Shown: positions 4,673 to 60,039 of the stretch, one piece after another
How positions within the stretch are numbered: position 1 is the first letter of the stretch
Layout: each line of letters opens with the position of its first letter
Source of the DNA: an uncultured bacterium
Lineage (GTDB): Bacteria; Patescibacteriota; Minisyncoccia; Phycocordibacterales; Phycocordibacteraceae
Direction: 5' to 3'
Length of the DNA stretch: 64,000 nucleotides
NCBI GenBank assembly: GCA_963759775.1
Contig: CAVXAH010000001.1
Coordinates: forward strand, 336,682 to 400,681
The notes under the pieces: generated by a model
What the model saw: the letters and a program-made list of their open reading frames with translations, nothing else
Database searches by the model: none
What the model was told of the DNA's origin: nothing
Made by a program: the position numbers and the translations under genes

Positions 4673-5194
4673 CTATTCTTCGAGTTCTTGCCATTCAACT
4701 TCTTTTGCCGTACCACTCCTCACGGCGGCATGCATTGCCAGAAAATCTCTGCAAATCTCATCAAAAACTTTTCTTTGCTCCGGAACGACCGCCTGAATAC
4801 CTTCTGCGAGGTACATAAGCCACTGAAGCGGAGAAAGATTGGTTCTCGGATTACCGATGTAAAGCTCCTGGAGACTCATTGCGCCTTCAATGGAAAATGG
4901 TTCTTGGGTCGCGCCTGCCAGGTCAATCGACCCGCTTCCAAGCTCTTGAATTCCCCCTTTATCTGACGCAAGAAATTCAATCAGCCGAACCACACTGGCA
5001 CATCCAAGTTCGCCGTAGATGCTTCTGAGTTTCTCCACGTCCACCGTGACATTTTGCTTTCTTTCCCTCCCCGTACGGACAATGCTTTCAAGGATTCCTG
5101 GTTTTCCGTTTGAATTGAATGCCGGACGTATGCGTGCAATTTCTTCAGAAGTTCTTCGTGATGCCATACCGCACCTCCTCAAAGTAAGGGTCAT
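4673..5194 (-). CDS. Hypothetical protein
   Basis: 173-aa ORF with protein-like composition, no recognised motif. Confidence 0.5.
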   Translation of the reverse strand: MTLTLRRCGMASRRTSEEIARIRPAFNSNGKPGILESIVRTGRERKQNVTVDVEKLRSIYGELGCASVVRLIEFLASDKGGIQELGSGSIDLAGATQEPFSIEGAMSLQELYIGNPRTNLSPLQWLMYLAEGIQAVVPEQRKVFDEICRDFLAMHAAVRSGTAKEVEWQELEE

Positions 5195-16919: not shown

Positions 16920-18020
16920 TCACTGGTTCATTGGAGAAACAAGGTACAGGAGGCTTGTGTCTCCAACTCCTTTTGCAATAAGTGGGCGACCAATGCCGCT
17001 CGCAGAAAGCGTAAGGTGTTCGGTTGAGGTGAGTGGAAGTATTGCTGAAAGATAGCGGTGGTTAAACGAGAGTTCGAGTGGGTTTCCTTCTATTTTTGCA
17101 GAAATACGCTCCGTTGATTCCCCGACTTCTGTGTTTCTCGAAAAAAGTTCGAGGGTTTTTGTTTTTGGATCAAAATTGAGGCGGATCTTTTGAAATGAGT
17201 CAGAAAAAACCGCGACTCGTTTTAATGCGGTCTCAAAATCTCTTCGGTGTACTGTCGCCACAACCACAGATTCCTTAGGGATGATTTGGTGGTAGTCGGG
17301 GTAAACCGCGGAGGTGAGGCGTGAAACAAGAGTTCCACCATCCCAAATAAATGCGCATTGGTGTTCATCGAAAGAAACAATAACATCTTCGTCTGGAAGC
17401 GCTTGGGCGATATCGAGTGCGTTTTTTGCAGGAATGAGTATTTTGCTTTGTGAGGTTTTTGTTTTGAGTGGAGTTTTTTTCTCTACCAGTCGGAATGAGT
17501 CTGTGGCTACTAAGGTAAGTATTCCTCCTTCAATAAAAAGATAGATGCTTGAGAGTTCGGGGCGGACGGTAGAGGTTGATGCGCAGCTCGCCACCGAGGT
17601 AATAAGTGTACGTAGTTGCCCACCAGGAAGAATGAATCTGTTTTTTGGGTTCTCAGGAAAGGGTATAGAGGGGAAGTCGTCGTAGGGTGTTGTTTTTATT
17701 GAGCTTTTTGCCGAACCACTCTTCACCACCACAATGTCTCCTGTGTGTTCAAGAGAGACTGTTCCCTCTCCTGTAAGAGTGGAGGCGATGTTTTTAAGTA
17801 TGTGAGCAGGAATAGCAACAACCCCATCTCCTTTTTTCTCCCCAGACACCTTAAGATCAACCCCTGTTTCAAGGTTGGTGGCGCGGAACTTAATCCCATC
17901 GTCCCCTGCAATAATAAGAATTGAAGAAAGTGCAGGGAGTGCCGCGGTGTTATGTTGTGCAAAACGTGACGCTGTGGATATCGCGTCTATGAATTTCTTC
18001 TTTTCTAAAGAAATAATCAT
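16920..18020 (-). CDS. dnaN: DNA polymerase III beta sliding clamp
   Basis: 366 aa, three-domain clamp-like pattern, immediately downstream of dnaA. Confidence 0.9.
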   Translation of the reverse strand: MIISLEKKKFIDAISTASRFAQHNTAALPALSSILIIAGDDGIKFRATNLETGVDLKVSGEKKGDGVVAIPAHILKNIASTLTGEGTVSLEHTGDIVVVKSGSAKSSIKTTPYDDFPSIPFPENPKNRFILPGGQLRTLITSVASCASTSTVRPELSSIYLFIEGGILTLVATDSFRLVEKKTPLKTKTSQSKILIPAKNALDIAQALPDEDVIVSFDEHQCAFIWDGGTLVSRLTSAVYPDYHQIIPKESVVVATVHRRDFETALKRVAVFSDSFQKIRLNFDPKTKTLELFSRNTEVGESTERISAKIEGNPLELSFNHRYLSAILPLTSTEHLTLSASGIGRPLIAKGVGDTSLLYLVSPMNQ

Positions 18021-18326
18021 ATGAATACTATTAGGGGTGGGTATAAGTGGAAAAGATGAAAAAAGGATGAAATATATAGTTGGTTTTTAAGAGTGATTTA
18101 TAAGAAGGTGTTGAAAAACAAACTTTGCGAACAGGGGATAAGAAATTTTTATGTACGAGGTGTGGAGAACTTTGGTTTTTTAAGGACATTATCCCCATCA
18201 AGTTCGTGTGTTTTTCATTTTTTACCAACATCATACCCACCACACTATCCACACAAACAGTTTTTTGTTTACCAAATTGCCAGAACAACCCCACACAACC
18301 CTCTTTGTTTGATGTAGTGTGACGGG
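18021..18326. other. Candidate oriC segment (dnaA-dnaN intergenic, AT-rich with DnaA-box-like 9-mers)
   Basis: TGTGGAGAA 18161-18169, TTATCCCCA 18189-18197, CTATCCACA 18245-18253, GGGGATAA 18134-18141; the same TGTGGAGAA recurs at 19737-19745 upstream of dnaA. Confidence 0.5.
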
Positions 18327-19685
18327 TCATACCAACAATGTTCGAATATTTTGGATGTCTTTTGCGAGGTCCATATTATCAACCACCTCTCTTTTTATTT
18401 TCTCACAAGAGTGAATGACGGTAGTGTGATCGCGCCCCCCAAGCTTCGTCCCAATAGTCGGGTAGGAGACACTAAAGTCTTCTCGGAGAAGATACATGAT
18501 GATTTGGCGTGGGCGTACCACCTCCCTTCGGCGCGTCTTCTCATAAATACTGTCTTCATCAATGCCGTAAAACTCTGCAACCTTAGAAACAATATGTTTT
18601 ACCGAAACGGTCTTCTGGGGCCGAGCAAAAGAGCGAAGCGACTGGCGTACTTCGGCAATGTCTGGCGGAGACCCCTTAACTTGAGCGTGACAGACGATGT
18701 TATTTATCATCCCCTCAAGCTCACGAATAGACCCAGAAACCGAGGTAGATACATGCTCAATTACCTCAGGAGAGAGCAAAATACCATGTGAAGCGGCCTT
18801 CCTTCGGATAATGGCCATACGGGACTCATGGTCAGGTTCACCAATATCAACGGTCATACCGCTTCCAAGCCGGCCACGGAGTCGCTCAGCGATGTCGGGG
18901 ATAGCTGCAGGAGGCCTGTCGCTTGAGAAAATGATTTGTTTATTGTTGTCGTAGAGCGCGTTGAAGAGATGAAAGAGTTCTTCTTGCGATTTCTCCATTT
19001 TCGCGAAGAATTGAACGTCATCCATGATAAGGAGGTCGTGCTGGCGGTACTTGTCTTTGAAATTCTTAAAATGATGTGCTGCCCCTCCTTGCACCGCGTC
19101 GGTGTAGTCGATCACAAACTTCTCTGAGGTCACATAAAATATCTTTCGAGTCGGGTACAGCTTCTTAAATTGGTTTCCTATCGCTTGCACAAGGTGTGTT
19201 TTGCCCCGCCCAGTCTCTCCGTACACAAAAAGTGGGTTGTAGGTGATGCCGGGACGAGCGATAACCGCTTGTGAGGCTGCGTGAGCGAGTTCATTGAAAG
19301 GTCCGACCACAAACGTATCAAAGGTGTACTTCGGATTGAGGTTATCGCTCTTGTTTACATAGAACTCATCAAGCGGAAGTTCTATGTTGGGGCGCTCAAT
19401 ACGAATTTCTTTCGGAACTTTTCGACGCGCGTCCTTTACGATTTGATATTCAATGTTGCGGAACTCGTGCGAGACCCCACGGACGATCTTAAGGAGGAGG
19501 GTGTGGAACTTTTTGAGGTACCAGTCCTTGAAAAACTGACTTGGAACACCCACATGAACCATCCCATCATCTATTTTTACTATGAAACTGTCTTGGAACC
19601 AGGTATTAAAATTTGCGGGGGAGATAGAAAGCTCAACTTGCGTCAGAATGTATTCCCAAAGCTCACGCGAATTCGTTCGGTCCAT
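18327..19685 (-). CDS. dnaA: Chromosomal replication initiator DnaA
   Basis: AAA+ motifs NPLFVYGETGRGKTHL, LLIMDDVQF, and C-terminal DNA-binding domain (GGRDHTTVIHSCEKI). Confidence 0.95.
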   Translation of the reverse strand: MDRTNSRELWEYILTQVELSISPANFNTWFQDSFIVKIDDGMVHVGVPSQFFKDWYLKKFHTLLLKIVRGVSHEFRNIEYQIVKDARRKVPKEIRIERPNIELPLDEFYVNKSDNLNPKYTFDTFVVGPFNELAHAASQAVIARPGITYNPLFVYGETGRGKTHLVQAIGNQFKKLYPTRKIFYVTSEKFVIDYTDAVQGGAAHHFKNFKDKYRQHDLLIMDDVQFFAKMEKSQEELFHLFNALYDNNKQIIFSSDRPPAAIPDIAERLRGRLGSGMTVDIGEPDHESRMAIIRRKAASHGILLSPEVIEHVSTSVSGSIRELEGMINNIVCHAQVKGSPPDIAEVRQSLRSFARPQKTVSVKHIVSKVAEFYGIDEDSIYEKTRRREVVRPRQIIMYLLREDFSVSYPTIGTKLGGRDHTTVIHSCEKIKREVVDNMDLAKDIQNIRTLLV

Positions 19686-25196: not shown

Positions 25197-27682
25197 CTAT
25201 ACAGGTGCTGATGGGTTGCCTGGGTTTTGTGCATTCGCAAAACGCTCTTTTTCTTGCTTGATGGAGAGGAGCTGAGACGGATCTGAAGTGATGATCTGAT
25301 CTTCGGTGTAGGAAGCCACTATTTTTATAGCGACATGCTTCAGGCCTGCGAAAAAGAGCCCCTCGCCTACCCCCGCCTCAAGGAGGAGGTATTTCTCCTG
25401 GTCGGTAAGGTTGAACGTTTTCTGAAGCACATCTATAGAAGTCGCAGATTGCTTAAGGAGAATTTGGATTGATGAGTTTGCGAGAATAGGTTTTCCATAC
25501 GGAGAACGAAGGAAGTCCTCAACGTCTTGAGTGATCGTGCACACGCCGAGATAGTATTTGCGGCCGCGTTTTGCGAGTGAATACAAGAAGGACGCGGTGT
25601 CTTCGGATTTCATCATTGACCACGCCTCGTCGACCACAAGGAGTCGTTTCTTAATGTCGTGGCGCACGGCATTCCAGATGAAGTGGGTAACGATGTACAT
25701 GGCGACAGGCTTGAGCTCGTCTTCCATGTCTCGTATCGAGAAAATCACGAGCTGTTGATTGATGTTCACATTGCTTGGCTGGTTCAAAAAGCCTGCCCAG
25801 GTACCCCTCGTGTATTTTGAAAGGCGCTCCACCAAAGACTCGCTTCCTTCCATGCCGGAGAGGACCTGTTCGAAGTCAGAGAGCAGTGGCGGCTCGTGCA
25901 CCGGTGAAGTCTGCTGTCGCCCGTGATGTCTTTAAGTGCGTAGGTTTCGGAAATCGCGCGGTCAACAATAGCGTCTTCTTCAGCGGTAAGCCCGCCAAGC
26001 ATGATGCGGAACAAACCAACGAGGTTAATGATGTTTGATCGTAGGATGTCTTTAGGGTCTTCGTCTGCCTTCACGGGCGGGAGATCAAACGGGTTGATGT
26101 GGTGTTCGGATGAAAGTGAAATATGGAACGAGCGTCCACCGGTTGCTTCCGCAAGCTGGTCGTATTCGCGTTCTGGGTCGATCACAATGACGTCGGTGCC
26201 AAACATCAGGGAGCGCAGAATTTCGAGCTTGGTCGCGTAGCTTTTACCGGAACCTGATTTTGCGAAGATAACGGAGTTGTAGTTTTCAAGTGAGAATCGA
26301 TCAAAAAGAATGAGTGAGGAGTTGTGGCGGTTGATACCGTAGAGGATGCCGCGATCGGACGTGAGGTCAAAGGAAACGAACGGGAACATTGAAGAAAGCG
26401 GTGAGGAATTGAATTTGGAATTAACGAGCAAGCTCGTCGGTTCCAAGGGGAAGGCATGAGCGGAAGCCCTGTTCCTGCTGGAAGAGAGCCGGTTTGGTGT
26501 AGACGAGTTTTGAATCAAGAATTCCGCGGATGTCGCCTTCCGTTTTGTCGATCTCTTCTTTTGAATCCCCATAAAGCGAAATGTAGAGGCCCACGTCAAA
26601 GAGTTTTTCTTGCGCCTGCTGGAGAGAGTCGCGGAGTGTCCTCAATGTCTTGATACCCCGTATCAAGAAGTGGATCGCGCACGAGACCCTCTCGCCTCGC
26701 GCTCATTGATCTGGCTTTGCACCTCAGCTACTTTTTTCTGGAGCGAACGGAGTGCGTCTCCGGTATCAATAGGATGAATGAAAATAGAAGCATCAAGCAC
26801 TTTATCGAGATTGATGACAGGGGCGAACCAGCCGTCTGCGAGAAAGCGTGGGTATGAAATGGTATAGAACGCGCGCGCAAATTTTTCACCAAGCTGTATT
26901 TCGCGCGAGCCAATGGAGAGCGCGGCAGGGGCAATAGTGTCAATGAGATCAAGTGCACCTTGGCGGTAAATATCTTTTGGCAAGACCGGTACAACCGATC
27001 CCTCTTCTTTCTTTTTTCTGCTTAGAAAATCAAGTAGTGCCATAATTTAGGATTCGAGGCGGATAGGGTTTTCAAGCTCTCCAGGGTTGAAAGAGCGGTA
27101 GAGGAGCTCAATAATTTCCTCTGTACCGAGCGGCACCGCACGCACACCCGTTCCCGCGATTCCTCCCGCAACGATAGCGAGGCGTTGCTCAAGCTGGGCG
27201 CGGTCGTGTTCAAACTGGTCTGCCGCACCCGCCTGCGGACCTCCTCCCCCACGGAGCATGCTGAGCGATTTTGAAATCTGCGCAGTGCCCGCGGAGGCGT
27301 ACGGGACAATGATGTAAAACGTTTTCGTCATGATGTTTGAACGCTCAGAAAAGGAGCGGACGAACTCAATGTATTCGCGCAGCTGTATGCGCATGAGCTC
27401 CGTTTTTTGCTCCGGCTCTTTTCCGGCAAGGAGTGTGAGATATGGACGCAAATCCATCTTGCGAGAATTGACGACGATTTGGATAGAAAAATCGAGCGTA
27501 TTCAAAAAGTTTTGAAAACCTTCGGTGATAGCACTCTGTTCGTCAGCAGACTTGAGTCCGAAGTTGACCGAGGAGCAGATAAGAACACCGCGATAGCCGC
27601 CACCCTTAAGGACAATGACGCCGTTTCGGATTTCTTTTACCGGAACAAATGCTTGTGTGGGTGCGGAGCGTTTGGGAGGCAT
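25197..27682 (-). pseudogene. VirB4/ConE/Tn916-Orf16-type T4SS ATPase, disrupted (1 in-frame TAA + about 4 frameshifts)
   Basis: Five collinear fragments (27047-27682, 26663-27043, 26421-26666, 25784-26599, 25197-25901) sum to about 828 codons; Walker A FAKSGSGKSY, Walker B LLVVDEAWSMM; in-frame TAA at 27047-27049; frame changes near 26687, 26636, 26423 and 25903. Confidence 0.8.
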
Positions 27683-28282: not shown

Positions 28283-29179
28283 ATGAACGTAGAAGTGGCT
28301 AAGCGACAATTTTTGGAATACATCGAGATAGAGCGCGGCCGCGCGGTGAAGACCGTGGAAAACTACGACCACTACCTCACTCGTTTTTTCGCGCAAACGA
28401 ACATTAAAGATACGAAAGACATCACAGAAGAGGGTATCCGCGAGTTTCGTTTGTGGCTGAACCGCCAAGAAGGAGTTGATGGCTCAATGAAACGCCGCAC
28501 GCAAAACTACTATTTGATTGCGCTCCGGGCATTTCTCAAATTCCTTCGCAAGCGTGAAATAGAATGTATCTCGCCAGAACGTATTGAGCTTGCAAAGGTC
28601 TCGGAGCGCTCGCTTGATCTCATTTCAAGCACGGAGCTTGAGCGTTTGCTGAAAGCAGCAGAAGGTGCGGACGAAAAAACACTTCGCGACAAGGCCATTT
28701 TGGAACTTCTCTTTTCAACAGGTCTTCGTGTCTCGGAGCTCTGCTCGCTTGATTCGGATCTAGACATCACCCGCGACGAATTTTCCGTCCGTGGCAAAGG
28801 AGACAAAGTGCGCGTCGTCTTTCTCTCCCCTGCCGCAAAACAAGCGGTCGCCGCGTATATGAAAGTCCGCAAAGATATGGGTGAAGCACTCTTTGTAAAC
28901 ACTGCAAAAAACCGTGAGCGCGGTGAGCGGCTCACTCCCCGCTCCATCCAGCATTTGATAAAGAGGTACGCCGCTAAAGCAGGTATTACAAAAAAAGTCA
29001 CCCCGCATGTACTCCGCCACTCTTTCGCCACCGACCTCCTTTCAAACGGCGCTGACATCCGCTCGGTCCAACAACTCCTCGGTCACGCCTCTATAAACAC
29101 GACGCAAATCTACACGCACGTGACCGACTCCCACCTCCGCGACATTCATAAGAAATTCCACTCAAAGGGCCGCTCATAA
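28283..29179 (+). CDS. Tyrosine site-specific recombinase, XerC/XerD-like
   Basis: C-terminal catalytic pattern HVLRHSFATDLLSNGADIRSVQQLLGHASINTTQIYTHV; TATACT box 7 nt upstream of ATG. Confidence 0.85.
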   Translation: MNVEVAKRQFLEYIEIERGRAVKTVENYDHYLTRFFAQTNIKDTKDITEEGIREFRLWLNRQEGVDGSMKRRTQNYYLIALRAFLKFLRKREIECISPERIELAKVSERSLDLISSTELERLLKAAEGADEKTLRDKAILELLFSTGLRVSELCSLDSDLDITRDEFSVRGKGDKVRVVFLSPAAKQAVAAYMKVRKDMGEALFVNTAKNRERGERLTPRSIQHLIKRYAAKAGITKKVTPHVLRHSFATDLLSNGADIRSVQQLLGHASINTTQIYTHVTDSHLRDIHKKFHSKGRS

Positions 29180-47785: not shown

Positions 47786-47792
47786 CCATGAG

Positions 47793-47909
47793 TCCCGTTA
47801 GAAATCGCGGACGCTATAATGAGCATCACGGTATGCACGATATTTTTATGAGCTCTAATCAAGTAGGGGGCGGCGCTATTGAAGCGTTCGCGTCCTATTT
47901 CTAACGGGA
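47793..47909. mobile_element. MITE-like 117-bp TIR element in the pgk start codon (copy A)
   Basis: TIRs TCCCGTTAGAAAT 47793-47805 / ATTTCTAACGGGA 47897-47909; direct TGAG at 47789-47792 and 47910-47913. Confidence 0.6.
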
Positions 47910-49057
47910 TGAGACCGGTACAGGACATTCCGGTATTCAAAAACATTCCCGTTCTCGTGCGCACGGAAATGAATGTGCCCATTGAAAATGGGGTGGTGGC
48001 TAATGACTATCGCCTGAGGAGAGCTCTGCCAACCATAACGTACCTCGCAGAGCGCGGAGCGCGCGTGATTCTCGTGAGTCATATTGGGGAAAAAGGAACC
48101 GAAACACTTCTCCCGGTTGCGGAGGCACTCAAAACCCTCATAGCTAAAGTTTCTTTTTGTTCCACAACAATAGGTACGGAGGCACGAAGCGCTATACGTG
48201 CGCTCTTACCAGGTGGCGTGCTCGTTCTTGAAAACGTGCGGCGCAATCGCGGGGAAGTGATGAATGATCCGGCATTTGCAAAAGAACTCGCGACACTCGC
48301 AGACGTTTTTGTTGAAGACAGTTTTGACACTTGCCACCGCGCTCACGCATCCATTGTCGGAGTGCCCACACTCCTCCCAAGCTACGCAGGTCTTTTGCTT
48401 CAAGAAGAAATGAAAGAGCTTGGTAAAGCGGGGCATCCAAAAAAACCTGCAATTGCGATTATTGGAGGAGCAAAATTTTCCACAAAAGAACCGGTATTGA
48501 AATCCCTCCTCACTACCTACGACCAGGTATATGTAGGAGGAGCACTCGCGAACGACTTCCTTAAAGCGTCGGGTAACTCTGTAGGAGCATCTCTTGTCTC
48601 TGGCGCTTCACCCGACGAAATTGCTCCGCTTCTAGAGAATAAAAAATTAATCCTTCCCAAGGATGTAGTGGTAATTCCAAAAGAGGCGCAGGGCGCAGAC
48701 GATGTGCGTATGCATTCTCGCGTGAGGGCGGTGAACGCAGTGAAGGATGACGAAATTATTCTTGATATGGGTCCCGACTCCAGCACCCGACTTGCACACG
48801 CGGCACGAGCGGCAAAGACTATTCTCTGGAACGGTCCGCTTGGAAATTACGAACACGGGTTTACTGATGCCACAAACATGCTTGCAAAAGCGATAGCGGA
48901 AAGTGGGGCGCATTCGGTGGTCGGTGGTGGCGACACGGTTGCCGCCATAGAAATGCTCGGCATTCTCCATCGTTTTTCTTTCGTTTCAACCGGCGGTGGC
49001 GCCATGCTTGACCTCATAGCCAAGGGTACGCTCCCAGGTATTGACGTATTGAAGTAA
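47909..49057 (+). CDS. pgk: Phosphoglycerate kinase
   Basis: VLVRTEMNVP, hinge and C-terminal GGGDT / STGGGA motifs; ATG 47909 formed by the last A of the TIR plus TG of the direct repeat. Confidence 0.9.
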   Translation: MRPVQDIPVFKNIPVLVRTEMNVPIENGVVANDYRLRRALPTITYLAERGARVILVSHIGEKGTETLLPVAEALKTLIAKVSFCSTTIGTEARSAIRALLPGGVLVLENVRRNRGEVMNDPAFAKELATLADVFVEDSFDTCHRAHASIVGVPTLLPSYAGLLLQEEMKELGKAGHPKKPAIAIIGGAKFSTKEPVLKSLLTTYDQVYVGGALANDFLKASGNSVGASLVSGASPDEIAPLLENKKLILPKDVVVIPKEAQGADDVRMHSRVRAVNAVKDDEIILDMGPDSSTRLAHAARAAKTILWNGPLGNYEHGFTDATNMLAKAIAESGAHSVVGGGDTVAAIEMLGILHRFSFVSTGGGAMLDLIAKGTLPGIDVLK

Positions 49058-49356
49058 GGGTGGTATACTAATATTAGTAGTACTGAAGGCGACCATTTTG
49101 GTTCGCTCGGAGCTCTTCTCATGATCCCCACATTGACCGCTGTTTTTTCTCTCGCCATGCTCGCACTGGTCATCCGGCGCCGCGCTCGGAATCGCCTCCA
49201 GGCAATTCCCAACAAGGTTGACCGTCGGCAGGCCGTGCCGCTTTAACTGGGCGCAGGGCAAAAACAAAACGCCAGTTCTCGAAAGAGACTGGCGTTTTTC
49301 TTTTAAATAGCGTAAATCACAAAACTCGTCGCAGGTGCCGTTTTTGTGATTTACGC

Positions 49357-49785
49357 TTAAGTAAGCGCGTCGCGAATACTTTTTGCGATTTTTTCTTTTT
49401 CACCTTCAGCGTAGCTTTTCTCGGGCCAAAAGTGGAACTCGTTCCGGTCATGACGGGGAATGATATGGAAATGAAGATGAAAGACAATTTGTCCGGCAGC
49501 TGCCTCATGATTTGAGTTGATATGCACACCGCTCGCACCAACTGCGTCCCGCACGGCGGGTGCGATTTTACGTACGGTGCGCATTACTGCGGCAAGCGTT
49601 GCATCATCAGTATCGAAAATATTTCTCACAGACTTTTTTGGAATCACGAGTGTGTGTCCAGGAACATTGGGACGAATATCAAGAAAGGCAAGTGTCTCGG
49701 CATCCTCGTACACAATGTCAGCTGGGATCTCCCGACGAATGATTTTTGCAAAAGGAGTGTCTTCCACCCCGTTAGAAGTTTTCAT
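49357..49785 (-). CDS. HIT family hydrolase
   Basis: Histidine triad HLHFHIIP; start is either in-element ATG 49785 or GTG 49767 at the element junction. Confidence 0.85.
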   Translation of the reverse strand: MKTSNGVEDTPFAKIIRREIPADIVYEDAETLAFLDIRPNVPGHTLVIPKKSVRNIFDTDDATLAAVMRTVRKIAPAVRDAVGASGVHINSNHEAAAGQIVFHLHFHIIPRHDRNEFHFWPEKSYAEGEKEKIAKSIRDALT

Positions 49786-49868
49786 ACCGTTATTTTTCCG
49801 AAGAAATAAATTTAGAAAAAGAAAGTTCGTTTGAACGAATACTCAAATGGGTTGAACTTCTAACGGGG
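49767..49868. mobile_element. MITE-like 102-bp TIR element in the HIT gene start codon (copy C)
   Basis: TIRs CCCCGTTAGAAGTT 49767-49780 / AACTTCTAACGGGG 49855-49868; direct TCCA at 49763-49766 and 49869-49872. Confidence 0.6.
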
Positions 49869-49897
49869 TCCATGCCGGTCATAGTATCATTCGGGGA

Positions 49898-57597: not shown

Positions 57598-58113
57598 ATG
57601 GCAGTTATTAAACATTCAGCTCAGCGTGTGGGCGTATTCATTGACACGCAAAATCTCTATCACAGTGCGAAACATCTCTACAAGGCGCGCGTGAACTTCG
57701 CGAAAGTTCTTGAAGAAGCAGTAGGCGGTCGCGTGCTTGTGCGCGCCATCGCGTACGTCATCAAAACAGATAGCGGTGAAGAATCCGCCTTTTTTGATGC
57801 GCTTACTAAGATCGGCATTGAAACCAAAGTCAAAGACTTGCAGGTGTTTGCCGATGGAGCAAAAAAGGCCGACTGGGACGTAGGTCTTGCAATTGATGCG
57901 GTGAAACTTTCACCAAAACTGGACACCGTTATTCTCGCTACGGGCGACGGCGACTACGTACCGCTTATTGAATATCTTGATATGCACACGGGATGTCAGG
58001 TGGAAGTCATTTCCTTTGGAAGGTCTTCTTCGGCAAAATTAAAAGAGGCCGCGCACGCCTTTACCGACATGGGTGAGGACCCTAAAAAGTTCACTATCGG
58101 ACCAAGAGGGTAA
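57598..58113 (+). CDS. NYN/LabA-like domain protein
   Basis: RVGVFIDTQNLYHS...ATGDGDYVPLI pattern of LabA/NYN nucleases. Confidence 0.7.
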   Translation: MAVIKHSAQRVGVFIDTQNLYHSAKHLYKARVNFAKVLEEAVGGRVLVRAIAYVIKTDSGEESAFFDALTKIGIETKVKDLQVFADGAKKADWDVGLAIDAVKLSPKLDTVILATGDGDYVPLIEYLDMHTGCQVEVISFGRSSSAKLKEAAHAFTDMGEDPKKFTIGPRG

Positions 58114-58222
58114 CCCCTTACCACTTTGAGAGTTTGGCCACACCATCTCTCGTATGAACCGCGAGGTTACCTCGCGGTTCATGTTTGTACACCCTTGGGT
58201 ATCTCTCAAAGTGGTAAGGGGT
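58113..58222. repeat. Nested perfect inverted repeats (20-bp outer, 14-bp inner)
   Basis: ACCCCTTACCACTTTGAGAG 58113-58132 / CTCTCAAAGTGGTAAGGGGT 58203-58222; inner palindrome ATGAACCGCGAGGT-T-ACCTCGCGGTTCAT 58154-58182. Confidence 0.85.
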
Positions 58223-58249
58223 GCGCTACTATTGTAAGTACGTCATGAG

Positions 58250-58360
58250 CCCCGTTAGAAATTCAGCGAGCCTCCGTACTTTTCTCACGCTAATGCGCGA
58301 ACTCGCCTCACGGCTCCCTCATACTACCTATATACGTTATGGATAAAATTTCTAACGGGG
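58250..58360. mobile_element. MITE-like 111-bp TIR element in a start codon (copy B)
   Basis: TIRs CCCCGTTAGAAATT 58250-58263 / AATTTCTAACGGGG 58347-58360; direct TGAG at 58246-58249 and 58361-58364. Confidence 0.6.
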
Positions 58361-60039
58361 TGAGCGACCAAAACCAGAGCGAGCCGAACATTGATTCAGG
58401 TGAAATAAAAAAATACATCCGCACGTTTCAAAGCGATGCGGCGGCTCTTCAAAGTGGGACTCATCCGGACCTTGCTCCGCTTGCGCCTTCTCCTGTCACA
58501 CCAGCTCCGCAAACCCCGCCTCCCGCGCGCCCTACTCCAAGATCGCTACCACCAATTCCATATCCGAAGCCATATGATGCTCCTCCATCACCACCACCCC
58601 CGAAAGCTGAACCAAGGAAAATAGCTGAAGTGAGGAGGGTAGTGGACCCCGCCGCCTCTGCAATTGCAGAGATTGAGGCATATGAGAGAGATCTTGAGGC
58701 AGCAGAAAGAGTCGCCCCGCCCCCACCTCATCCAAAAATTTCTGTACCACCTCTCTCGAGAGCATCTCTAGGGGATTCGCGCGAAGTGATTCTTGCGAGA
58801 CTCCGCGCACGAGCAGGCGGAGCGGTCGTACCAGCTGCACCAATCGTAAAATCACCACCTTCGTCTATACCGCCACAACCAAAAGTCATTTCGCCACCCC
58901 CACAAACACTACGTGTAGATAATTCTGAAGAAGCGAAGGCTCTTGCCGAACTTAAGGAACGTCGAGAACATGCTCGCCACCTTGTTGAAGCGCGTCTCAC
59001 TGCCGCAGGGGAAGCTTCGCCACAAATGCCCGGAGCTATCCCTTCCTCACCGAGCCTCCAAAGCCCAAGCGAGCGTCTTATCGGAGGATCTCCTTTTATA
59101 GGAGCACCAGAAACGTCCGCTCCACCTCCACCGTTTATGTTTAAACCACCAGCATCTCCATCGTTGGATACTGCCGCGCCGCTCCATACCTATGAAAGTG
59201 ATTTTTCTGTACGTGTTCAGGAAACGAAAGCTTCAAAAGCAACCATTCTCGCCGCCGAAGGGGACCATGGAGTATCACAGCCGCAAGAAAAAAGTGAAGA
59301 CCCCCGCACACGTCTCCGAAATAGAATCTATATAGCCCTCGGCGCAGTTTTTCTTTTTGGAACCATAGGAAGTGCGTACCTCGTTACTACGTATTATAGA
59401 AATAATCCCGAGACCGTAGCGCCAGCGAAAGTAGTACAAACGCCAATTTTTGTTGACGACCGCGTGCAAGTGAGCGGCACAGGTCGAGAGCTCGCCGCCG
59501 CCCTGTGGCAGGCGGTTACTGCACCTTTGCCGGAAAGTAATGTACGTCTTCTGTACACCGGAAGTGGCACCACTACCAAAACCAACCTCCTGGGGGACTT
59601 AGGTCTTCCGGTGCCTGATGTGGTGCTCCGCAATATATATGCCGAGGGCAGTATGGTAGGAGCGATACATGCAGGTGACGAACAAAGTCCGTTCTTCATT
59701 CTCGCAGTCGCCTCCTATCGCGACACCTTTGCGGGAATGTTTTCTTGGGAGTCGCGCATAACACAAGATCTCGCAGAACTTTTCCCTACATACGAAACGT
59801 CAACCGCTCCGCCGTCCACTAGTGGGACAACGACGCCGGGAGCTCAGCCCACTTTTTTACTCCTTGGTTTTCATGATGAGGTCATTGCAAATCACGACAC
59901 GCGCGTGTACCGCGATGGGAGCGGGCGAAGCATTCTCTTGTATGGATATTGGAATCCGCAAACGCTCATTATTGCTCGAAATGAAGCAGCATTTGCTGAA
60001 ATTATTTCCCGATTCGGCACCTCTCGCACGGCGCAATAA
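58339..60039 (+). CDS. Proline-rich single-pass membrane protein, hypothetical
   Basis: Pro-rich N-half, TM IYIALGAVFLFGTIGSAYLV, globular C-half; start is in-element ATG 58339 or junction GTG 58360. Confidence 0.6.
   Translation: MDKISNGVSDQNQSEPNIDSGEIKKYIRTFQSDAAALQSGTHPDLAPLAPSPVTPAPQTPPPARPTPRSLPPIPYPKPYDAPPSPPPPKAEPRKIAEVRRVVDPAASAIAEIEAYERDLEAAERVAPPPPHPKISVPPLSRASLGDSREVILARLRARAGGAVVPAAPIVKSPPSSIPPQPKVISPPPQTLRVDNSEEAKALAELKERREHARHLVEARLTAAGEASPQMPGAIPSSPSLQSPSERLIGGSPFIGAPETSAPPPPFMFKPPASPSLDTAAPLHTYESDFSVRVQETKASKATILAAEGDHGVSQPQEKSEDPRTRLRNRIYIALGAVFLFGTIGSAYLVTTYYRNNPETVAPAKVVQTPIFVDDRVQVSGTGRELAAALWQAVTAPLPESNVRLLYTGSGTTTKTNLLGDLGLPVPDVVLRNIYAEGSMVGAIHAGDEQSPFFILAVASYRDTFAGMFSWESRITQDLAELFPTYETSTAPPSTSGTTTPGAQPTFLLLGFHDEVIANHDTRVYRDGSGRSILLYGYWNPQTLIIARNEAAFAEIISRFGTSRTAQ

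Follow-up and report, generated by a model that had tools for sequence, protein, structure and literature searches.

A hairpin-forming, MITE-type element in the start codon of a HIT-family gene and its relatives at other start codons

Copy C at the HIT gene and two further copies nearby

We analyzed a 64-kb window (the whole stretch of DNA under study, from contig CAVXAH010000001.1 of an uncultured bacterium) in which a HIT-family gene on the minus strand is interrupted, within its start codon, by a 102-bp hairpin element that we call copy C. Related elements, copies A and B, lie in the start codons of the PGK gene and of a gene for a proline-rich protein (Table 1). Pfam HIT domains were recorded on the window HIT protein (P0001). 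The 14-nt arms of copy C, CCCCGTTAGAAGTT and its exact complement AACTTCTAACGGGG, pair perfectly and are flanked on both sides by TCCA on the forward strand; as called by the repeat finder, the arms are 15 nt long (49766-49780 and 49855-49869), the fifteenth A/T pair being part of the duplicated TCCA. Read along the gene strand, the order is TG-A-TACTAT, 7 nt (GACCGGC), ATGGA (49873-49869), the element, and TGGAAGAC. The original ATG at 49873 opens a 27-codon frame, MDPVRSSTHLSIRSNELSFSKFISSEK, whose stop codon lies 4 nt ahead of an in-frame ATG (49785), which is itself 18 nt upstream of the rebuilt GTG (49767). A previous sequence-only reading of this DNA had placed the arms and the TCCA repeats at these same positions, had given the same minus-strand order (TACTAT box, 7 nt, A/TGGA, element, TGGA/AGACACT, the slash marking a junction here and below), and had pointed to the mini-frame and to the two possible new starts; all of this was reproduced. 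The RNA fold of copy C has an energy of -33.2 kcal/mol (z = -3.8).

Comparison with relatives shows that copy C is a genuine insertion and a real copy of a mobile hairpin family. Of the 120 listed HIT homologues, the majority have a length of 135-137 aa, and MEDT[IV]F is the N-terminus of most of the 22 homologue sequences that we read; among the homologues examined, an SNGV extension occurs only in the window protein (MKTSNGVEDT) and in one 82%-identical relative, P0002 (..MRKISNGVEET). Syntenic loci (RNase H-RecJ / HIT / PGK-TIM) carry empty sites. At locus L123 the HIT site reads GATACTAT GGTTCGC ATGGGAGAC, where the window has GATACTAT GACCGGC ATGGA, the element and TGGAAGAC, and the HIT start was empty in 19 of the 19 metagenome relatives inspected (L126-L144), the empty site reading ATGGGAGAC or ATGGAAGAC. 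The pre-insertion MEDT start that had been reconstructed from the window alone is thus borne out both by orthologues, which begin with MEDT and lack MKTSNGV, and by the empty sites. The PGK site is likewise empty in L123, and also in L121, where it reads TAG TC ATGCGTACCGTA (ATGCGTACC), compared with TAA CC ATGAG, the element and TGAGACCGGTA in the window.

Because most of the 19 metagenome relatives have TGnTATACT, then 6-7 nt, then ATG at HIT, the gene is very probably leaderless, in agreement with the leaderless-type promoter proposed earlier, and copy C would then sit after the first transcribed base. Leaderless status is not needed for insertion, since copy A sits at an operon-internal start, with PGK following the TIM stop codon.

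Searching the window for the 14-mer arm with up to two mismatches gave four occurrences against 0.25 expected (0/100 shuffles reached four), and an 11-mer with up to one mismatch gave exactly three arm pairs, A, B and C. All three copies are at start codons and fold as long hairpins (z = -3.8 to -4.2). The arms of A and B contain GAAAT and ATTTC whereas those of C contain GAAGT and ACTTC, confirming the matching base change in both arms of C that had been noticed from the window; the terminal pair is T..A in copy A and C..G in copies B and C. The peptides of the upstream open reading frames (uORFs) begin, in translation, MDPVRSSTHLSIR, MSPVRNRGRYNEHHGMHDIF and MSPVRNSASLR. The host protein of copy B (559/566 aa) has no Pfam match.

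Table 1. Positions of the three elements and of their associated features in the 64-kb window.
Feature	Positions	Strand	Details
Copy C, 102-bp hairpin element	49767..49868	-	Arm match, RNA fold, empty sites in L123 and 19 metagenome relatives
Copy C gene-proximal 5' arm	49855..49868	-	CCCCGTTAGAAGTT read on the minus strand; AACTTCTAACGGGG on the forward strand
Copy C 3' arm	49767..49780	-	AACTTCTAACGGGG read on the minus strand; CCCCGTTAGAAGTT on the forward strand; last G plus TG gives GTG 49767-49765
Upstream TGGA of the 4-bp target duplication (gene strand)	49869..49872	-	With A49873 forms the original start ATGGA; TCCA on the forward strand
Downstream TGGA of the target duplication (gene strand)	49763..49766	-	TCCA on the forward strand
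Extended -10-like box TGATACTAT	49881..49889	-	Ends 7 nt upstream of ATG 49873; leaderless-type promoter mark
Copy C uORF, original ATG through element, 27 codons (MDPVRSS...SEK)	49790..49873	-	TAA 49792-49790
HIT-family gene, present readable form	49357..49785	-	142 aa from ATG 49785 or 136 aa from GTG 49767
Copy A, 117-bp element in PGK start codon	47793..47909	+	Original ATG 47788-47790; TGAG 47789-47792 and 47910-47913; rebuilt ATG 47909-47911
Copy A uORF, 38 codons, original ATG to TAA in the 3' arm	47788..47904	+	TAA 47902-47904; ends 4 nt before rebuilt ATG 47909
Copy B, 111-bp element in start codon of 559/566-aa proline-rich protein	58250..58360	+	Original ATG 58245-58247; TGAG 58246-58249 and 58361-58364; rebuilt GTG 58360-58362
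Copy B uORF, 33 codons	58245..58346	+	TAA 58344-58346, just past in-frame in-element ATG 58339

The family, its targets and its arms

For the family scan, one genome per species was used and both 10-nt arm cores were required 72-102 nt apart, which gave at least 120 loci; all family counts refer to the matches listed. From these we extracted 135 copies of 94-131 bp, 132 of which could be tested for duplication and start position. Patescibacteria account for most of the loci among the matches listed, the others coming from Omnitrophota, Planctomycetota, Desulfobacterota and some further groups. Direct repeats of exactly 4 bp flank 83/132 copies (p ~1e-164), so the 4-nt repeats first seen in the window are not a product of chance. 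At 74/132 copies the element directly adjoins an open reading frame (ORF) of 70 codons or more, the ATG or GTG of which consists of the last base of the element plus TG. The left flanks are most often ATGAA (30), ATGAG (11) and ATGGA (8) and the empty-site consensus is A/TGRR, which makes general the target rule, TG of ATG plus two purines, that had been drawn from the window copies; the rebuilt empty sites show no conserved position beyond ATGRR.

The terminal pair divides the family. Copies with T..A are at start codons in 61/69 cases, compared with 13/58 for copies with C..G (B and C among them); the remaining C..G copies are found mostly in TAAA, TTGA or TCAA, whether intergenic, on a stop codon or next to a tRNA end. 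Of the TGRR insertions, ~49/53 are in start codons and ~4 elsewhere, while TGRR sites in the same loci number ~420 at predicted starts, 3,963 between genes and 18,382 within coding DNA. Start codons thus make up 420/4383 of the non-coding TGRR sites, and the number of sites on offer falls far short of accounting for the start-codon bias. The genes hit have no functional relation to one another (PGK, HIT, adenylate kinase, an L29-like protein and others). Recent movement is evident at L118, which holds four copies within 8 kb, two of them 96% identical and located at the ATGAA starts of adenylate kinase and of a small L29-like gene. At L021 (7673-7896) a tandem pair shares its middle TTCA, the second element lying inside the A/TGAA site rebuilt by the first. 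We also considered whether the element targets the point at which transcription of leaderless genes begins; 19/52 targets have a -10 box at a distance of 5-8 nt vs 126/607 control starts (p = 0.014), which is mild support only, and the operon-internal position of copy A weakens the idea further.

In structure, the element is a MITE, or miniature inverted-repeat transposable element, in every respect except a known parent. Its size (94-131 bp, within the ~500-bp bound for MITEs, with the longest internal frames ~38 codons) leaves no room for a transposase, it ends in terminal repeats of 13 bp (14 nt and perfect in copy C), its target is duplicated and present as a single copy at empty sites (L121, L123, L126-L144), and several copies are dispersed (three in the 64-kb window and four in 8 kb of L118). 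The duplication is variable in sequence but exactly 4 bp long and therefore points to a staggered DDE-type cut; a DDE-type transposase acting in trans would probably make it, with a 4-bp stagger.

The terminal inverted repeat of the family is 13 bp, (T/C)CCCGTTAGAA-R-Y. Arm positions 2-11 are fixed by the scan pattern, and covariation was judged at positions 1, 12 and 13, where Watson-Crick pairing in 133 distinct copies is 97%, 93% and 89%, respectively, vs 49%, 47% and 39% with shuffled partners. Ungapped pairing of the arms ends at position 14. A relaxed search retrieved 13 copies with changed 'conserved' arm bases, vs 1 in shuffled DNA; eight of them have one change per arm and are fully complementary, and five are changed in one arm only. 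The matching base change in both arms is a general property of the family, which settles the earlier question of whether the arms co-vary across copies: pairing at the variable positions is 89-97% and drops to ~40-50% on shuffling. Folding is without strand asymmetry (sense -35.7 vs antisense -34.9 kcal/mol, p = 0.18), so that selection of the hairpin on the RNA strand only is unsupported, and because pairing is equally good on both strands the data cannot tell whether DNA or RNA pairing matters. A large subfamily does have an asymmetry marker: an inner repeat, CGCGRWC, directly follows the left arm, and on the right 4 nt ([AT][CT]CT) stand between the repeat and the arm. By this marker 34 copies are oriented sense with the gene and 4 antisense.

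Some members and lookalikes deserve separate description. L038 (5160-5420) and L062 (3741-4001) have in common a 3-bp duplication and near-identical flanks (TATAAT..ATGG, element, TGGCTGAA[GT]TAAAAC); they are not an orthologous insertion, as the downstream proteins are without similarity, and the likeness of the flanks would come either from carry-over of neighboring DNA or from a target preference that reaches further. L016 (7173-7239) has a shortened 67-bp copy with one mutated arm (CCCATTAGAA), placed exactly at the start codon of a 137-aa membrane protein and without a matching duplication. At L113 (5057-5166), in a Bdellovibrionales metagenome-assembled genome (MAG), the arms enclose a complete tRNA-Ala gene (5074-5147). 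In two genomes of the candidate phyla radiation (CPR), a C..G-type element adjoins exactly the 3' end of tRNA-Val (L088, 3442-3536) or the 5' end of tRNA-Leu (L024, 1915-2020), and the tRNA call overlaps the terminal GGG/CCC of the element in both. MAG DX4.bin27 (L012 2046-2369 and 4832-5155; also L007 and L063) carries a 94-bp hairpin inside a ~330-bp repeat block; in L012 the block forms an inverted pair around a gene for a 686-aa secreted protein, and the repeated unit exceeds the hairpin. Two viral-contig matches (L124 6240-6700 and L125 8380-8810) are not the element: arrays of GTTAGAAC-N4-6-GTTCTAAC matched the scan pattern by accident, and these short-palindrome arrays, in a GC-rich phage intergenic region, resemble repeated operator sites.

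Proposed translation through the element and its alternatives

The right arm of the element reads TTC TAA CGGG and is followed by A or G and TG, which places a TAA 4 nt ahead of the start codon that is rebuilt. Where the target is TGA[AG], the second frame ends in an ATGA overlap; the third runs into the gene. An element length divisible by 3 puts the old ATG in the frame of the arm TAA, and such lengths are found in 36/74 copies at start codons (p = 0.0045) and, without enrichment, in 19/58 elsewhere. Among copies of such lengths, 15/25 keep an open frame from the old ATG as far as the arm TAA, vs 2/25 in the reverse-complement control and a mean of 3.0 (maximum 7) with shuffled interiors. 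Mini-ORFs that begin with ATG, span 10 codons or more and close at the arm TAA are present in 29/74 copies on the sense strand vs 9/74 on the antisense strand (p = 0.0003), and the other two frames show no excess of them. An in-frame ATG inside the element occurs in 6/13 GTG-rebuilding copies vs 7/61 others (p = 0.008). These frame statistics suggest that ribosomes translate through the element and pass to the gene by a stop-and-restart relay, for which all three window copies have the necessary arrangement of frames; in a generalised test the arrangement is found in 28/52 copies vs 13.9 +/- 3.0 with shuffled interiors.

The element makes its 4-bp target duplication directly behind the A of the start codon (A/TGRR), and its last base, A or G, lets the right junction rebuild ATG or GTG before an intact gene. 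A relay would then work as follows. The gene's own signals would load ribosomes on the old upstream ATG, namely the leaderless TGnTACTAT promoter in the case of HIT and coupling to the TIM stop codon in the case of PGK. These ribosomes would read into the element, melting the hairpin, terminate at a stop that lies next to a start codon in the same frame, and begin again at the latter (termination-reinitiation). We regard the mobile insertion, the bias toward start codons, the bias in orientation and the covariation of the arms as solid, and the restart relay, which we infer from the reading frames, has statistical support. On balance we consider it reasonably probable that copy C is a non-autonomous, MITE-type mobile DNA hairpin that entered an A/TGRR site and that its host gene is now translated by relay.

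Several results weigh against this interpretation. No autonomous parent was found: there are no long arm pairs in 1.3 Mb of family loci and solo arms are at chance level, and Pfam revealed no transposase domain among the 55 window ORFs, only one Xer-type recombinase (28283-29179). A DDE transposase reading double-stranded ends does not by itself explain the arm covariation, and A/TGRR is too short to explain the near-absence of insertions at intergenic ATGRR sites. The generalised relay count (28/52) is not significantly above the antisense count (19/52, p = 0.11), and because it fits only these 28/52 copies, about half of the copies must initiate by another route. There is no excess of Shine-Dalgarno (SD) or -10 motifs before the internal ATGs. 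The copies are related by descent, so that all p-values given here are approximate.

Related searches gave the following. The element does not appear to supply its own promoter or SD for the mini-ORF: -10 boxes precede 21% of mini-ORF ATGs vs 17-23% in controls, and SD-like motifs 20-39 nt from the 3' end are present in only ~20% of copies. Inspection of the L016 and L012 loci revealed no transposase, and when copies A and C were compared by BLAST with plasmid and phage collections, chance matches of 20-60 nt were all that appeared. At the Rfam 15 gathering thresholds the window yields tRNAs only, with no family match over elements A or C even at E <= 10.

The alternative that survives best, although we judge it rather unlikely, is that the same mobile element has no special adaptation: any T-purine-rich 4-mer would be hit, only copies at gene boundaries would survive in compact genomes, the rebuilt ATG or GTG would initiate directly, and uORF and hairpin would be irrelevant. 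The C..G copies, with their TAAA, TTGA and TCAA sites mostly between genes, at stop codons and at tRNA ends, speak for it, as do the 24/52 start-codon copies that fail the relay test and a target motif that is nil beyond ATGRR. However, non-coding TGRR sites outnumber those at start codons by ~9:1 and yet ~49/53 insertions are at starts, and the L118 copies, near-identical and hence recent, are already at start codons. The orientation bias is 34:4, and the open frame on the sense strand only (15/25 vs 2/25) needs selection on translation through the element.

A second alternative is that the element moves as a folded single strand, with a structure-reading enzyme that would recognise the hairpin and not the sequence of two separate ends (HUH/Y1 as in IS200/IS605 and REPINs, or a tyrosine recombinase as in attC and CTX phage). 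We consider this quite unlikely. Pairing at arm positions 1, 12 and 13 is kept (97%, 93%, 89%) while the bases vary, matching changes in both arms outnumber changes in one arm (8 vs 5), the one-sided 4-nt spacer would form a bulge marking one strand, and the window encodes the Xer-type recombinase mentioned above. The element resembles attC, REPIN/RAYT and IS200/IS605 ends in two ways: part of the stem conserves pairing over sequence, and a bulge on one side may mark the strand. Since covariation is unexpected under a plain DDE model, a hairpin-dependent mechanism stays in play. The target duplication speaks the other way: it is true and variable, with a single copy at empty sites, whereas IS200/IS605, REP and attC insertions are without such duplication. 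In contrast to structure-defined single-strand sites, 10/13 arm positions are highly conserved in sequence and folding has no asymmetry, the energies being alike on both strands (p = 0.18), with G:T pairs not clearly one-sided (51 vs 34), and no HUH gene was present among the window ORFs scanned. An IS200/IS605-type PATE or a REP/REPIN, which would insert 3' of a fixed tetranucleotide, lack a target duplication and have subterminal hairpins, is ruled out by the duplication together with pairing from the very ends of the element. An integron attC site, with the core order R''(RYYYAAC)...R'(GTTRRRY) and a place at the 3' end of gene cassettes beside an integrase, was also rejected, as the GTTRRR / YYYAAC order is opposite to that of the attC core (here GTTAGAA...TTCTAAC), the sites are 5' ends of housekeeping genes, and duplications are present.

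A third alternative, to which we give the same low likelihood and which is compatible with a mobile origin and a relay, is that the start-codon copies are exapted cis-regulatory leaders whose mRNA hairpin is maintained for initiation control, uORF coupling or protection of the 5' end from RNases. Maintenance of this kind would be consistent with arms that are perfect in the three window copies despite very different interiors, with no decayed copy in 64 kb, with the arm covariation and with the fold z-scores of ~ -4. It would also be consistent with the 82%-identical HIT relative, which keeps ..ISNGV (implying an intact 3' arm) while the remaining in-frame read-out differs. Its ..KISNGV implies ATTTC in that arm, and the insertion may be ancestrally the same one. 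A regulatory leader is harder to reconcile with folding that lacks strand asymmetry, with the absence of conserved interior structure and of an Rfam match, with functionally unrelated target genes, and with close relatives that do well without the element. Finally, skipping of the element at the RNA or ribosome level, by intron-like excision between the direct repeats or by an initiator-tRNA hop from the old to the rebuilt AUG, is suggested by resemblance only (matching AUGRR flank a stable hairpin in T..A copies, compare T4 gene 60 and mitochondrial 'byp') and would be very improbable, as B and C have GUG in place of AUG for their second codon, the take-off codon has no following stop codon, the strong sense-only open frame argues that ribosomes read the element, and no ribozyme or intron model matched.

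Beyond copy C, we put forward tentatively, as somewhat less likely than not to hold in full, a wider interpretation of the relay in which the family would be one of cross-phylum, 'translationally transparent' transposons. These would home to A/TGRR starts, their ends would rebuild the start codon and carry a stop 4 nt upstream of it, and the host gene would be re-expressed by termination-reinitiation; arm pairing itself would be selected, which would hint at a new mobilising enzyme and at either a hairpin intermediate or a role as RNA, and start codons would be safe havens in streamlined CPR genomes. If so, selfish DNA would persist in very compact genomes on the first codon of genes because the ribosome stops and restarts, in parallel to what introns and inteins achieve by splicing. 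Many CPR proteins are probably annotated with false N-terminal extensions ending in ..[IT]SNG[MV], examples being P0001 (MKTSNGV), P0002 and the window PGK and 566-aa ORFs, and the duplicated ATGRR marks exactly the true ancestral start codon. The element also offers a natural system for studying how uncultured lineages initiate at leaderless genes and how they reinitiate, and it points to a transposase with an unusual target choice, none having been found so far in the loci searched.

Known systems and neighboring features

The closest parallels are other small palindromic insertions. Correia/NEMIS elements, which are MITEs of Neisseria, are similar in size (~100-150 bp), in their terminal inverted repeats, short duplication, lack of a transposase and many copies, and as gene-near, co-transcribed hairpins. 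They differ in having a TA duplication and an intergenic location within one genus, whereas the present family duplicates TGRR in the start codon, rebuilds the codon, has a 34:4 orientation and spans several phyla.

Among autonomous elements, piggyBac has the terminal repeat CCCTAGAAAGATA and a TTAA target, and piggyBac/IS1380 transposases are of the DDE type. The likeness would consist of a 4-5-bp T/A-rich duplication (4 bp here), a 13-bp repeat starting with CCC (here CCCCGTTAGAAAT) and inner repeats that are unequally spaced. However, TTAA is not among the tabulated non-start duplications or the commonest flanks of start copies, and no related transposase was found in the loci searched; we treat this resemblance as a possible lead only. 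IS900/IS901-type elements of the IS110 family enter translation-initiation regions in a single orientation and land between ribosome-binding site and start codon. Unlike this family, they are autonomous 1.4-kb elements without terminal inverted repeats or regular duplication, and they use a DEDD transposase. As for translation, operons with translational coupling (UAA-N4-AUG, AUGA overlaps) have a stop codon only a few nt from the next start, so that a terminating ribosome can restart there with no separate ribosome-binding site. The difference is that the upstream 'gene' here is a transposon-made frame of 27-38 codons, and the stop is part of the conserved end of the transposon.

Rickettsia palindromic elements (RPEs) are small mobile palindromes that expressed genes can carry inside them thanks to frame compatibility with the host protein (PMC10969869). 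They form in-frame fusions inside ORFs and add peptide, whereas here the insert is at codon 1, mostly out of frame, and apparently neutralised by stop-and-restart. Membership of the RPEs was rejected, as only 11/52 copies share the frame of the gene, and of these 11 all but one (10) meet an early stop. The phrase 'start codon' is absent from a 2024 review of prokaryotic MITEs (PMC10969869). In the literature searched, the arm sequence matched only primers and unrelated texts and the concept of a start-codon MITE was not found, although literature beyond that searched may describe the element. A MITE-type element with start-codon targeting having no prior description in the literature searched, we regard it as a new variant of MITE.

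Other features of the window are of interest in their own right. Between the convergent PGK and HIT genes there is a pair of neighboring hairpins, perfect or nearly so (49260-49304 and 49309-49357), which are probably bidirectional terminators; this segment (49260-49357) gives weak, sub-threshold Rfam matches to leader and small-RNA models. A second, unrelated 110-bp hairpin (58113-58222) has perfect 20-nt arms (ACCCCTTACCACTTTGAGAG) and a nested palindrome (58154-58182). It starts at the TAA that ends an NYN-domain gene and is followed closely by the TACTAT box of the gene that carries copy B; it has neither a duplication nor a further copy in the window or in 205 loci. Elsewhere, the window contains dnaN and dnaA (16920-19685), and is thus likely an origin region, two overlapping ORFs with TraG/VirB4-type P-loop matches (25197-26599), which may be one split gene, and the gene for the Xer-type tyrosine recombinase (28283-29179).

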